Below, piece after piece: positions 19,329 to 22,910 of a DNA stretch of 64,000 nt. Under the pieces are notes generated by a model that was not told the DNA's origin, did not search any database, and saw nothing but the letters and a program-made list of their open reading frames with translations. The stretch lies in assembly GCA_902626385.1 (NCBI GenBank), contig CACOEZ010000002.1, positions 17,509 through 81,508 on the forward strand. Direction: 5' to 3'. This stretch comes from an uncultured SAR86 cluster bacterium (GTDB taxonomy: Bacteria > Pseudomonadota > Gammaproteobacteria > Magnimaribacterales > D2472). The stretch's first letter is position 1. Each line of letters starts with the position of its first letter. Position numbers and translations under genes: made by a program.

Positions 19329-20576
19329 TTGAAAAAACTCAAGATTGCAATTTTAAGTTACAGAAGTGCAAAATTTGGAGGTGGACAAGGGGTATACATA
19401 AAAGATATCTCAAAAGCATTAATAAATTCAGGACATGAAGTTGATGTTATTTCTGGCCCTCCATATCCCGATCTTGTTGATGGAATTAGGTTAATAAAGT
19501 TACCGGGACTAAATTTATTTGAATCCTTTTCCTTTAAAGATAGATTAAAAAAATTCATCAATAAGAGTAACAAATCAATTGATGAGTATTATGAGTTCAT
19601 CTCTGTATTCTTAGGGGGGTTTCCAGAACCAAAAACTTTTGGAAAAAGAGCAAATAATTATTTAAAAGAAAATAATGATTACGATATAGTCATTGACAAC
19701 CAGTCAATAAGCTATGGATTGCTTGATATACAAAAAAGACTGCCTTTAATAGAAATAATTCATCATCCAATAACATTTGATTTCAAGCATGAGCTTGAAT
19801 CATCAAAAAAAATTAAATATAAAATTTCAAGACATAGATGGTATTCCTTTTTGAAAATGCAAAAAAAAGTTGCACCTAAGTTAAATCAAATTATTACACC
19901 TTCAAAAAGCTCGCAGAAAGGAATTTCTGAGGAATTTATGTGCGATTACAAAAATATAAAAGTCATAAATAATGGCCTTGATGCTAGTGAGTTTATTCCA
20001 ATGCCTGAGATTGAAAGGAAAAAAAATAGACTTATAACCACTGCGAGTGCTGACGTTCCGCTTAAAGGATTGGATTATAGTCTTATGGCCATAAAAGCCT
20101 TAAAAAAAGATTTTAAAGACATTGAATTGATAATAGTTGGGAAAATAAAGAAAAATGGTCATACCGAAAGACTTATAAAAGATTTAAATATTAATAAAAG
20201 TGTTTCTTTTAGATCAGAACTTACAAAAAAAGAAATTGCTAAATTATATGCTTCTAGTTCAATAGCAATAGTAAGTTCATTGTATGAGGGTTTTGGATAT
20301 CCTGTGATAGAGGCAATGAGTTGTGAAGTACCGTTGATTGCAACTAATGTATCTTCGATACCTGAGCTTGTCGGATCATATGCCTCTCTTATAGAACCAA
20401 AGAGTTACGATGAAATTTATAAAGCTGTAAAACAAATATTATTAAATTATGATGAATATGAGAGAATTGCCGTCGGTGGAAGACAACATATAATTAATAC
20501 ATTTAATTGGTCTAAAATTACAACTCAATATGAAGATATTATTACCAAAACAATTAAAGAACACGAAAAATGCTAA
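19329..20576 (+). CDS. GT4 glycosyltransferase, similar to mycobacterial MMP alpha-1,4-mannosyltransferase ManT
   Basis: IAILSYRS...GGQGVY, SGPPYP, ASADVPLKG, SLYEGFGYPVIEAMS (GT4 ExF..P..EA). Confidence 0.8.
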   Translation: MKKLKIAILSYRSAKFGGGQGVYIKDISKALINSGHEVDVISGPPYPDLVDGIRLIKLPGLNLFESFSFKDRLKKFINKSNKSIDEYYEFISVFLGGFPEPKTFGKRANNYLKENNDYDIVIDNQSISYGLLDIQKRLPLIEIIHHPITFDFKHELESSKKIKYKISRHRWYSFLKMQKKVAPKLNQIITPSKSSQKGISEEFMCDYKNIKVINNGLDASEFIPMPEIERKKNRLITTASADVPLKGLDYSLMAIKALKKDFKDIELIIVGKIKKNGHTERLIKDLNINKSVSFRSELTKKEIAKLYASSSIAIVSSLYEGFGYPVIEAMSCEVPLIATNVSSIPELVGSYASLIEPKSYDEIYKAVKQILLNYDEYERIAVGGRQHIINTFNWSKITTQYEDIITKTIKEHEKC

Positions 20577-21274
20577 CTTTTAACTTTTCCAAACATAAGA
20601 TAATTAATACAGATGGATTAATGCTGGATGTCGGTTGTGGAGAAGGTAGGCATATATTTGGCGTTATGCAGGAATATCCAAACATGAAATGTATAGGCAT
20701 TGATCCGCATGACGATTCTCTTAAAAAAGCAGAGGAGGGTTATGAATACTTTAAAACAATTTCAAATGCTGGAGCGGAATTTATGGAGGCTTCTGCTTAT
20801 GCATTGCCTTTTCCAGATGAAAGTTTTGATTTAATAGTTTGCTCAGAAGTTCTTGAACATTTGCATGAATATAACGATGCTGTTCAGGAGATATATAGAG
20901 TCTTAAAGAAAGGCGGAAAATTTTATGCAAGTGTTCCTGCCTCTTGGCCTGAAAAAATATGTTGGGCATTATCAAAAGAATATCAAAATCAACCTGGTGG
21001 ACATCTAAGAATTTTCAATCAAAAAAATCTAGTGAAAGAAATTGAAAGTAAGGGTTTTAAATTACTATCTTCTGAAAAATTTCATGCTATTCATGCACCA
21101 TATTGGTGGCTGAGATGTTTGTTTTGGAAAACTCAAGATACAAATCTTATTGTTAATATTTACAAAAAAATTTTAGAAAGACATATTTTAAAGAAACCAA
21201 AAATTCTTGATTTTATTGATAAAATTTTAAATCCAATAATGGGTAAGAGTTTTTCAATGTATTTTGAAAAATAA
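20570..21274 (+). CDS. Class I SAM-dependent methyltransferase (candidate sugar O-methyltransferase)
   Basis: LDVGCGEGRH, CSEVLEH, GGHLRIF, HAIHAPYWWLRC. Confidence 0.8.
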   Translation: MLTFNFSKHKIINTDGLMLDVGCGEGRHIFGVMQEYPNMKCIGIDPHDDSLKKAEEGYEYFKTISNAGAEFMEASAYALPFPDESFDLIVCSEVLEHLHEYNDAVQEIYRVLKKGGKFYASVPASWPEKICWALSKEYQNQPGGHLRIFNQKNLVKEIESKGFKLLSSEKFHAIHAPYWWLRCLFWKTQDTNLIVNIYKKILERHILKKPKILDFIDKILNPIMGKSFSMYFEK

Positions 21275-22313
21275 AATGCACAAACCTCATAACAAATTTG
21301 GAAAAAATTTTATTTTTGAAAAAAACATTTTTTTAAATCTTGCAGAATCAATAAAAAAAATACAATTAAAATCTGGAGCAATCCCATCTAATATAGATAA
21401 TTCACATGATCCTTGGGATCATATTGAGTCAATAATGGGGTTAAATTTTTTACATGACAAGAAATCAGCAGATTCAGCATTTGATTGGCTAAAAAATAAT
21501 CAAAATAAGGATGGTAGCTGGTATTCAAAATATTTAGATACGAACCCTATTGAGTTAAATAAACCAACTCACTTTAGTCCATATATTTCTGTTGCTGCTC
21601 TTCATTACTTCAAAATATTTTCTGATAGAGAAAAACTTATTGAATTATGGGAGACAATATCCAAAGCTATAAATTTTTCTATTAACCTTCAAAATCCAAA
21701 TGGAACAATTCCTTGGTCGGTTGATAAGAATAATAAAATTGAAGAAGATTTTCTTTTAACAGGGTCATCTTCAATCTTAAAAAGTATAGAGTGCGCCATA
21801 AAAATATCTAGAATCCTCGAAAAGAAGGAGAACAAAAGTTGGATGAGAGCATATAAATCTTTGGCACAGGCTGTAAAAAATCCAAATGGATTATTCGATT
21901 TAACTCAAGATCGTTCAAGATTTTCAATGGATTGGTATTATCCAATAATATCTGGAGCTTTATCATCAAAAGAAAGAGATTTTTACATTCAAAAGATTTT
22001 CAAAGATTTTTATGTCGATGGTTTAGGTATTAAATGCGTTATAGAAGAGCCATGGGTAACAGTTGCAGAGACGTCTGAATTTATAATCTCATTAGTAATT
22101 TCAAACAGAGTTGAAGAAGCTAAAAAAATATTTTCTGAAGTAATGAATATTACTGATGTTAATAATGTGCCCTATATGGGCTGGCAATATAAACAAAGTA
22201 TTTTTTGGCCTGAAGAGAAGCCTAGTTGGACATCTGCTGCTCTAATTTTGGCTGCAGATTCTATTTACAATTTTTCAAGTGGCTCAGATATTTTGACTGT
22301 AAATCATTTATAG
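21264..22313 (+). CDS. (alpha/alpha)6-barrel 'prenyltransferase/squalene oxidase repeat' protein, candidate MmpH-like glycan hydrolase
   Basis: DPWDHIE, QW-like repeats WLKNNQNKDGSW and LQNPNGTIPW, RFSMDWYYP, PWVTVAETSE, WPEEKPSWTSAA. Confidence 0.7.
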   Translation: MKNKMHKPHNKFGKNFIFEKNIFLNLAESIKKIQLKSGAIPSNIDNSHDPWDHIESIMGLNFLHDKKSADSAFDWLKNNQNKDGSWYSKYLDTNPIELNKPTHFSPYISVAALHYFKIFSDREKLIELWETISKAINFSINLQNPNGTIPWSVDKNNKIEEDFLLTGSSSILKSIECAIKISRILEKKENKSWMRAYKSLAQAVKNPNGLFDLTQDRSRFSMDWYYPIISGALSSKERDFYIQKIFKDFYVDGLGIKCVIEEPWVTVAETSEFIISLVISNRVEEAKKIFSEVMNITDVNNVPYMGWQYKQSIFWPEEKPSWTSAALILAADSIYNFSSGSDILTVNHL

Positions 22314-22910
22314 TTTCTTCATACACACGATGGTATCAACTCTCTCAAAATCAATAAAACCATTTTGCAGGGCATACTTATAAACATGATATGGAGCTTG
22401 ACCACCTTCTTCAGGATTTTCATAAATATCATGAATTACTAGCGCTCCTCCGGAGATTATTTTTGTATTCCATGACTTAAAATCTTGCATAGCTGAATCT
22501 AATGAGTGACTTCCATCTATAAAGACCATTGATACCTGTGTGTTCCAATCTTTTGCTGCAATGGAAGATTCTCTGACTATCGGAACGATATTATAAGCTT
22601 TAAAAAGATTTATATTTTTTATTAGTAAAGGAAGAGAGTTTATTTTATTAGTTGATATATCAAAAATTTCTTCATCAAAATATTCTTCATTTATTTGATG
22701 CTCTTCGGACCCTGAATGATGATCAATTGTATAAATAAATTGATTATTTTTTTTAGAACCTTCAGACAAAAATAAAGTTGATTTACCACAATACGTTCCA
22801 ATTTCTAATATGGGCCCATTTTTAGAAAATAATGACGCCCATTTTGTAAGAGCTTCTCCTTCATGAAATGGCATGAAACCTTTTACGCCTGTAAATTTTT
22901 TTATATTCAT
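22308..22910 (-). CDS. Methyltransf_24-type SAM O-methyltransferase, MeT1-like
   Basis: KGFMP..EG, LEIGTYCGKST, DHHSGSEEHQ, FIDGSH, IHDIYENPEEGGQAP. Confidence 0.78.
   Translation of the reverse strand: MNIKKFTGVKGFMPFHEGEALTKWASLFSKNGPILEIGTYCGKSTLFLSEGSKKNNQFIYTIDHHSGSEEHQINEEYFDEEIFDISTNKINSLPLLIKNINLFKAYNIVPIVRESSIAAKDWNTQVSMVFIDGSHSLDSAMQDFKSWNTKIISGGALVIHDIYENPEEGGQAPYHVYKYALQNGFIDFERVDTIVCMKKL

Follow-up and report, generated by a model that had tools for sequence, protein, structure and literature searches.

Does the pathway for methylmannose polysaccharide (MMP), which is regarded as peculiar to mycobacteria and a few further Actinobacteria and is tied to their unusual lipid metabolism (PMC9883506), also exist in a streamlined marine gammaproteobacterium? 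The question is raised by four genes at positions 19329-22910 of a 64,000-nucleotide (nt) stretch of contig CACOEZ010000002.1 (positions 17,509 to 81,508; hereafter the window) from an uncultured SAR86 cluster bacterium (assembly GCA_902626385.1). The original prediction interpreted them as a counterpart of the actinobacterial MMP cluster, and this identification is upheld by best or sole matches to ManT, MmpH and MeT1 in the PDB, by reciprocal matches and by a shared gene order. We consider it likely that the four genes are counterparts of the actinobacterial manT-pmeT3-mmpH-meT1 genes, and that their products synthesise and recycle an MMP-like glycan, namely an O-methylated alpha-(1->4)-mannose oligo- or polysaccharide that would be free in the cytoplasm.

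Open reading frames (ORFs) and Pfam matches confirm the tight packing described earlier for this locus, i.e. overlapping genes for a family 4 glycosyltransferase (GT4), a methyltransferase and a third protein (ORF3), followed by a convergent Methyltransf_24 gene (ORF4). The first two genes overlap by 7 nt; the second and third overlap by 11 nt if ORF3 begins at a TTG codon, or lie 1 nt apart if it begins at an ATG; and the convergent ORF3 and ORF4 overlap by 6 nt. The ATG at 21276 is the more likely start of ORF3, since the resulting length of 345 amino acids (aa) is that of most of its close database relatives. The gene order is that of the non-tuberculous mycobacterium M. hassiacum (MHAS_04402, ManT; MHAS_04403, pMeT3; MHAS_04404, MmpH; MHAS_04405, MeT1), whose meT1 is likewise convergent (PMC9883506). 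Hydrophobic segments and signal-like N-termini are absent from all four window proteins, there is no transporter among the genes, and none of the four reaches the cut-off of any NCBIfam model.

The residues named for ManT and MmpH in the M. hassiacum study (PMC9883506) were mapped onto the window proteins through the PDB-search alignments. The best match of the GT4 is the M. hassiacum ManT entry 7qsg_A (E 1.4e-80, residues 4-410), and the next GT4 follows only at 5e-14. Equivalents of ManT Gly15, His142, Lys240, Glu313 and Glu321 are conserved, being invariant in 75/75 aligned rows, and the N-terminus (LKIAILSYRS..GGGQGVY) aligns with that of ManT (MRIALLSYRS..CGGQGVY). As a ManT homologue, the GT4 is predicted to be a retaining alpha-(1->4)-mannosyltransferase.

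MmpH is an (alpha/alpha)6 endomannosidase with Asp47 and Asp50 as acid pair and Glu262 as base (PMC9883506). It is the best PDB match of ORF3 (7qsj_A; E 7.7e-56, residues 27-343), all others lying above 0.02, and 10 of its 11 named residues are kept (Asp47, Trp49, Asp50, Phe102, Thr163, Met215, Tyr219, Glu262, Glu265 and Trp315). The equivalents in ORF3 include D49 and D52 (acid pair), E269 (base), E272 and W322, and the DPWDH.E motif is present in the alignment. ORF3 is thus an MmpH homologue with a predicted (alpha/alpha)6-barrel and a predicted alpha-(1->4)-endomannosidase activity. The family is small: among 1.84 billion representatives, a threshold of E <= 1e-3 yields 945 clusters and one of E <= 1e-30 yields 120. 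ORF3 also weakly matches the NCBIfam model TIGR01577, 'oligosaccharide amylase' (6.2e-11; 41.6 bits, the cut-off being 820.7). A comparison of SAR86 genomes lists 'glucoamylases (sga1)' in the majority of them (PMC11582366), which may be the MmpH homologue gene under another name.

The sole PDB match of ORF4 is M. hassiacum MeT1 (6g7d/6g80/6h40; E 2.4e-45, residues 9-195), with about 41% identity counted in the PDB alignment, where the motifs GFMP..EG, SEEHQ and DG.H can be seen. This MeT1 homologue is a predicted 1-O-methyltransferase that would cap the reducing end of the glycan. The motifs of ManT, MmpH and MeT1 that had been cited in the original prediction are therefore all visible in alignments to the solved M. 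hassiacum proteins. The remaining methyltransferase gave just generic matches in the PDB and no specific relative, as is to be expected since there is no pMeT3 structure among the hits. In sequence searches it is the reciprocal best match of the actinobacterial putative 3-O-methyltransferase, and it is predicted to be a mannose 3-O-methyltransferase, a function that is putative even in mycobacteria.

Reciprocal searches were performed with five other cluster-bearing genomes (three actinobacterial ones, Syntrophus aciditrophicus and Pseudomaricurvus hydrocarbonicus). In the forward direction, the GT4 matched the gene adjoining the MmpH homologue (1e-76 to 2e-103; runner-up matches 3e-13 or weaker), and the pMeT3 homologue matched best the gene between ManT and MmpH (6e-45 to 8e-59; runner-up matches 1e-9 or weaker), with a concordant reverse search. 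Of the tests of the four genes against the actinobacterial clusters, which had been proposed as a check of the original prediction, 9/10 were reciprocal best matches, the next paralogue trailing by over 30 orders of magnitude. In the reverse direction, the cluster proteins of five named loci best matched the window genes within the host genome, again with large gaps. (Below, G000 denotes the host genome, G001 etc. the genomes of relatives, L-numbers extracted loci, and g and f labels genera and families.) One reverse query, the MmpH extracted from L105, found no match in G000; we take this as a fault of extraction, because the forward match has 35% identity at 7e-67.

These similarities suggest a course for the pathway. 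By analogy with the scheme of Maranha et al. 2023, the MmpH homologue would cleave existing chains into defined oligomannosides, the ManT homologue would elongate such oligomannoside primers from activated mannose, the pMeT3 homologue would methylate 3-OH groups, and the MeT1 homologue would methylate the free anomeric 1-OH of the new reducing ends. The sugar, its linkage, the positions of methylation and the nucleotide donor would likewise follow the mycobacterial model. Mannose 1-phosphate would probably be supplied from mannose 6-phosphate by the product of the adjacent phosphomannomutase gene. That such a gene lies two genes away had been stated correctly, and the adjacency recurs in relatives: phosphomannomutase, ilvE and ManT genes stand together in 8/10 loci from the order's remaining families and in a further gammaproteobacterium (L025). 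Table 1 lists the coordinates.

Table 1. Genes of the cluster, its surroundings and other features discussed (window positions, unless a genome or locus is named)
Feature	Position	Strand	Remarks
ManT homologue (GT4)	19329-20576	+	415 aa; Glycos_transf_1 6.8e-32, Glyco_transf_4 5e-16 (Pfam)
pMeT3 homologue (class I S-adenosylmethionine (SAM) methyltransferase)	20570-21274	+	234 aa; Methyltransf_11 2.5e-24 (Pfam)
MmpH homologue (ORF3)	21264-22313	+	349 aa from TTG start; no Pfam family
MeT1 homologue (ORF4)	22308-22910	-	200 aa; Methyltransf_24 1.2e-18 (Pfam)
Phosphomannomutase/phosphoglucomutase (AlgC/PgmG-like)	16971-18341	-	four PGM_PMM domains
ilvE	18404-19324		upstream, between phosphomannomutase gene and GT4 gene
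lpxL	22907-23779		downstream of MeT1 homologue gene
waaA	23826-25061		downstream of lpxL
Short-chain dehydrogenase/reductase (SDR)	3421-4206		5 nt from tesB-like gene; unlinked to cluster
tesB-like acyl-CoA thioesterase II	4212-5087		12-15 kb from cluster, among housekeeping genes
Thiolase	35245-36432		30 kb beyond SDR/tesB pair; unlinked to cluster
Fusion protein (256 aa)	G000:C2:87191-87958 (locus L109:1087-1857)		about 5.7 kb past window end

The cluster is conserved throughout the order, whose genomes measure 0.9-1.8 Mb. These sizes, the low GC content, the division into four families and the marine sources accord with the SAR86 order as described by Freel et al. 2024 (PMC11582366). The MmpH homologue was found in 56/61 relatives from four families and ten genera, including 30/30 of the genomes that are at least 90% complete; the five relatives without it are 73-80% complete. 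(The host genome itself, small and AT-rich, with a GC content of 0.30-0.36 across the window, comprises 1.09 Mb in 20 contigs and is 72% complete.) All 11 loci of the genus share the order ManT, MeT3, MmpH, convergent MeT1, lpxL, and the ten loci of the other three families have the three plus-strand genes in 10/10 cases and MeT1 in 9/10. Genus members share 60-88% identity in the four proteins, compared with 50-76% in LpxL, and the pMeT3 homologue is the most conserved of the four (76-88%). In one genus member, G013 (C12:36224-37221), the MmpH gene is fragmented into three pieces and contains three TGA stops, which points to either a pseudogene or an assembly fault, and two other relatives have a single TAA inside the MmpH match. 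Each of the four genes is represented by fragments in contigs from four marine metatranscriptome runs of one study (29/33 records at least 99% identical, with parts of the stretch uncovered). These fragments give a weak hint of expression, because contigs of RNA libraries can derive from DNA.

In an even sample of the class the MmpH homologue was present in 9/401 genomes, or in 5/397 outside the order, and all five of these carry ManT and MeT3 beside it; in a sample of Actinomycetes it was present in 113/301. The order ManT, MeT3, MmpH is kept in 30/30 extracted actinobacterial loci; MeT1 runs convergently in 23 of these, runs in the same direction in 1 and lies beyond the 4-kb locus in 6. The window proteins are about 30-42% identical to these actinobacterial counterparts. 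An alignment-based pattern scan of 185,579 species genomes returned at least 590 rows, of which the best 80 named loci were analysed. Their hosts are Cellvibrionales-type Gammaproteobacteria, Alphaproteobacteria (Henriciella, Caulobacteraceae, OCS116), Desulfobacterota (Syntrophus, Smithella), Natrinema sp. 74 and Actinobacteria, and cultured, named carriers of the cluster include Pseudomaricurvus hydrocarbonicus JCM 30134 and Seongchinamella sediminis U0301. Of these best 80 loci, the three genes stand in order in 63, 51 of which also have the convergent MeT1, while 16 have MmpH alone (mostly Desulfobacteraceae; three cut by contig ends) and 1 is truncated. The statement that such a system had not been described in Proteobacteria fits the literature that was searched, in which MMP or its genes were not found outside Actinobacteria (the supplements of PMC9883506 and Ripoll-Rozada et al. 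2019 were not covered), and the main text of Maranha et al. 2023 mentions homologues in actinobacterial genera only (PMC9883506). The cassette as such is nevertheless common in proteobacterial genomes.

Several of these loci have peculiarities of their own. On the chromosome of the haloarchaeon Natrinema sp. 74 (L068, 1325000-1335974), ManT, MeT3 and MmpH homologues stand in the bacterial order with 34-39% identity to the window proteins, and MeT1 was not found within this locus. In Desulfobacteraceae-type loci (L030, L031, L035, L036, L039, L041, L046, L062, L065, L072, L073, L077, L106) the MmpH homologue occurs without ManT or MeT3 within 3.6-5 kb upstream. Syntrophaceae/Desulfomonilia loci have 2.5-3.3 kb of extra DNA between MmpH and the convergent MeT1 (L032, L037, L040, L042, L045, L055, L056, L058, L061, L091, L098, L103), i.e. 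additional genes have been inserted there.

A phylogeny had been proposed as a check for horizontal gene transfer. A quick IQ-TREE analysis of 129 MmpH rows (leaving out 7/12 redundant genus loci, rows with less than 85% query coverage and rows with a stop) separated, as one-sided groups, (i) the order together with two metagenome-assembled genomes (20 rows; SH-like approximate likelihood ratio test, SH-aLRT, 100), (ii) Actinobacteria (32 rows; SH-aLRT 99), (iii) Alphaproteobacteria (12 rows; SH-aLRT 99) and (iv) Desulfobacterota (33 rows; SH-aLRT 100). Inside the first group the families appear as families. With its long branches, the odd composition of the AT-rich rows and deep branches without resolution, the tree does not support a recent transfer from Actinobacteria, and it fits long vertical descent within the order.

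The position of the cluster in the genus raises the possibility of a role in lipopolysaccharide (LPS) decoration, in which the GT4 would transfer mannose to the 3-deoxy-D-manno-oct-2-ulosonic acid (Kdo)-lipid A core of an LPS that lacks heptose, for modification by the methyltransferases. The cluster abuts lpxL and waaA, and the MeT1 homologue gene, which shares 4 nt with lpxL, probably forms a transcription unit with it. A waaA gene also lies within about 4.5 kb in 9 of the best 80 loci, seven of which are Cellvibrionales-type loci outside the order. In these seven (L071, L076, L079, L086, L092, L097, L101) it is found 0.1-4.5 kb downstream of the MeT1 homologue; the adjacency to a Kdo-transferase gene therefore reaches beyond the order of the window. 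Moreover, neither a GT9 heptosyltransferase nor GmhA was found in G001, G018 and G038 (representatives of genus g1 and family f3), so that their core must use another sugar, and the LPS core of the smaller-genome families is probably heptose-free. Mannose is linked to Kdo in the heptose-less LPS core of Rhizobium, by LpcC, and the polymannose O-antigen of E. coli O8 is capped by methylation (WbdD). The likeness to these systems consists in GT4 mannosyltransferases, mannose methylation in Gram-negative bacteria and nearness to Kdo/lipid A genes; their glycans are, however, lipid-linked and exported, whereas the closest relatives of the window proteins are cytoplasmic MMP enzymes, and modules of the window type also exist in organisms that have no LPS.

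Against LPS decoration, the same four genes occur in the same order in 23/30 actinobacterial loci, and a haloarchaeon has three of them; all these hosts are without LPS. The cluster is also retained in family f2, although this family possesses heptosyltransferases. A glycan whose reducing end serves as the anchor is at odds with the presence of a cytoplasmic endomannosidase and a 1-O-methyltransferase acting on reducing ends; among and between the four genes there is none for a membrane protein, flippase or ligase; and the core could be served by two further GT4-like genes located elsewhere on the contig. The cluster does not match the pattern of an LPS locus (restriction to LPS-bearing hosts, lipid-linked acceptors, genes for export or ligation); the only LPS genes are the neighbours lpxL and waaA. 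Such a role is therefore highly improbable. A free product is favoured because a MeT1-type cap needs a free reducing end (PMC9883506), and a free cytoplasmic one because the four proteins have neither membrane nor signal segments and the module is also present in hosts without LPS. As a separate observation, G043 of family f2 carries three GT9 heptosyltransferase genes, a GmhA-like gene and an HldE-like gene beside the cluster.

Another idea is that the genes serve breakdown or salvage of methylated mannans from seawater rather than synthesis. ORF3 is indeed a hydrolase homologue, and the published SAR86 comparison stresses the degradation of lipids and glycans (PMC11582366). However, two SAM methyltransferases and a glycosyltransferase are biosynthetic enzymes, neither a transporter nor a periplasmic signal was found, and the mycobacterial hydrolase itself belongs to biosynthesis (PMC9883506), which makes salvage barely credible.

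Compared with the mycobacterial cluster, to which it corresponds in gene families, gene order, the catalytic residues of ManT and MmpH, and the soluble nature of the proteins without a transporter, the window cluster resides in a different setting. Its host is a Gram-negative, streamlined marine gammaproteobacterium with type II fatty-acid synthesis, it is wedged between ilvE and lpxL/waaA, the canonical ManC is absent from most relatives, and it is known from its genes alone, its product being predicted.

Several observations weigh against the synthesis of an MMP-like glycan by the window cluster. An MMP product has been observed in no organism other than Actinobacteria. The donor of M. hassiacum ManT is guanosine diphosphate (GDP)-mannose (PMC9883506), and the canonical GDP-mannose pyrophosphorylase ManC (TIGR01479) exceeds the cut-off in 6/61 relatives; 10/61 have a ManC-type match covering the nucleotidyltransferase part, and in one of them (G057) this match is split by a stop. 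ManC was not found in G000, G001, G018, G014 or G038, whose NTP_transferase proteins are GalU, GlmU, RmlA (G038 only) and MurU-like, and type I mannose-6-phosphate isomerase (PMI) was found in 0/5 genomes. Four near-complete genomes (G014, G039, G048, G052) contain the cluster and neither ManC nor the fusion protein described below. In the enzymes themselves, ManT Asp293, the proposed reader of the guanine of GDP-mannose (PMC9883506), is replaced by Lys in the window GT4 and is Asp in just 10/75 aligned rows, and MmpH Asn101 corresponds to His103 in ORF3. Finally, the RNA evidence consists of contigs of a single study, which are no proof of transcription. The MurU-like nucleotidyltransferase was rejected as a mannose enzyme, its gene adjoining one for an APH-family kinase in the MurU/AmgK arrangement. 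The change of Asp293 to Lys was dropped as a sign of another donor; it carries no information on this point, since ManC-like genes are present in cluster-bearing genomes whose ManT has Thr or Tyr at this site.

The scarcity of ManC could also mean that the same enzyme families make a different product, i.e. a methylated glycan of another sugar (glucose-based or mixed) or from another donor (ADP- or CDP-mannose). Consistent with this, Asp293 with its guanine contact is not kept, GalU (UDP-glucose) is present in G001, G014, G018 and G038, and the family of the neighbouring mutase handles glucose phosphates too (the top NCBIfam match of this protein is PgmG, with 449 bits, under the 600-bit cut-off). 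Family f2, however, has both the cluster and ManC-type genes in 6/8 genomes, and therefore a common mannose donor is the simpler reading. In addition, the MmpH subsite residues are kept at 10/11 positions, and a fusion of a PMI cupin with a nucleotidyltransferase fills the gap in 34/61 relatives, never together with ManC. Taken with these findings, a different sugar or donor appears decidedly unlikely.

This fusion protein, encoded past the end of the window, combines a cytidylyltransferase-like domain (PF01467, 8.6e-13, with an HSGH motif) and a C-terminal mannose-6-phosphate-isomerase cupin (PF01050, 6e-17). Among PDB entries, glycerol-3-phosphate cytidylyltransferase comes closest to it (1.8e-14, N-terminal 73 residues), and thousands of marine relatives, uncharacterised in databases, are named just 'adenylyltransferase/cytidyltransferase family protein'. 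It resembles ManC/AlgA/XanB (type II PMI/GDP-mannose pyrophosphorylases, TIGR01479) in that a PMI cupin is fused to a nucleotidyltransferase, and its distribution is complementary to that of ManC; it differs in that the nucleotidyltransferase, of putative activity, has the cytidylyltransferase (HxGH) fold and not the NTP_transferase fold. Of the 61 genomes, counted as plain tallies since the relatives share descent and are not independent, 34 carry the fusion at full length (in 2 of these a single stop interrupts the match), 10 carry a ManC-type gene independent of ManT, 0 carry both in intact form, 1 has a partial fusion only and 16 have neither (12 of which are less than 90% complete).

The fusion has given way to ManC in at least four separate places, namely in the genus (G023 and G026), in genus g6 (G053), in family f2 and in G057, where the fusion is degraded by 12 stops. 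An in-situ replacement was not seen, the ManC loci of G023 and G026 being without the uvrC and pgsA neighbours. A function of the N-terminal domain as an ADP-heptose enzyme is unlikely in the genus, because G001, G018 and G038 have neither the GT9 heptosyltransferase nor GmhA. We infer that the fusion is a candidate non-orthologous replacement of ManC that could feed the pathway.

What would an MMP-like glycan do in such cells? MMP is a chain of alpha-(1->4)-linked 3-O-methylmannose that has a 1-O-methyl cap and binds long-chain acyl-CoA. The closest conceptual parallel, mycobacterial 6-O-methylglucose lipopolysaccharide (MGLP), is also a cytoplasmic polymethylated polysaccharide that is proposed to bind fatty acyl chains. 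MGLP differs from MMP in its sugar, linkage chemistry and enzymes, and starts from glucosylglycerate; no protein of the window cluster matched MGLP enzymes in the Pfam, NCBIfam and PDB searches. By analogy, buffering of long-chain acyl-CoA or fatty acids, or cold adaptation, may be the role of the glycan. For an acyl-CoA carrier this view draws on the analogy and on the reported central place of beta-oxidation in SAR86 carbon metabolism (PMC11582366). The tesB-like, thiolase and SDR genes, which the original prediction had cited in favour of an acyl-CoA carrier, are indeed present in the window; they lend it no support, since they lie 12-15 kb away and are unlinked, and as functional partners of the cluster they are ruled out.

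The interest of the cassette lies in its conservation in an abundant, streamlined lineage. Its retention in 30/30 near-complete genomes of an order with genomes of 0.9-1.8 Mb, together with its spread to Alphaproteobacteria, Desulfobacterota and a haloarchaeon, suggests that the polymer has a general and strongly selected cellular role. The missing ManC and the complementary fusion raise the further question of how these cells activate mannose. The most far-reaching version, according to which an MMP-like mannan would be a core cytoplasmic acyl-CoA/fatty-acid buffer of one of the most abundant heterotroph lineages of the ocean, made from nucleoside diphosphate (NDP)-mannose supplied by the fusion as an unrecognised bifunctional enzyme (cytidylyltransferase fold and PMI cupin) that has displaced ManC, and would add to the methylated sugars of marine dissolved organic matter, is speculative and on balance rather unlikely. 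A SAR86 isolate exists (PMC11582366).

A further observation concerns the opposite end of the window. At positions 596-3343 it encodes a CobT-like (VWA) and a CobS-like (AAA) protein, a cobaltochelatase-type pair that has been retained in this very small genome.

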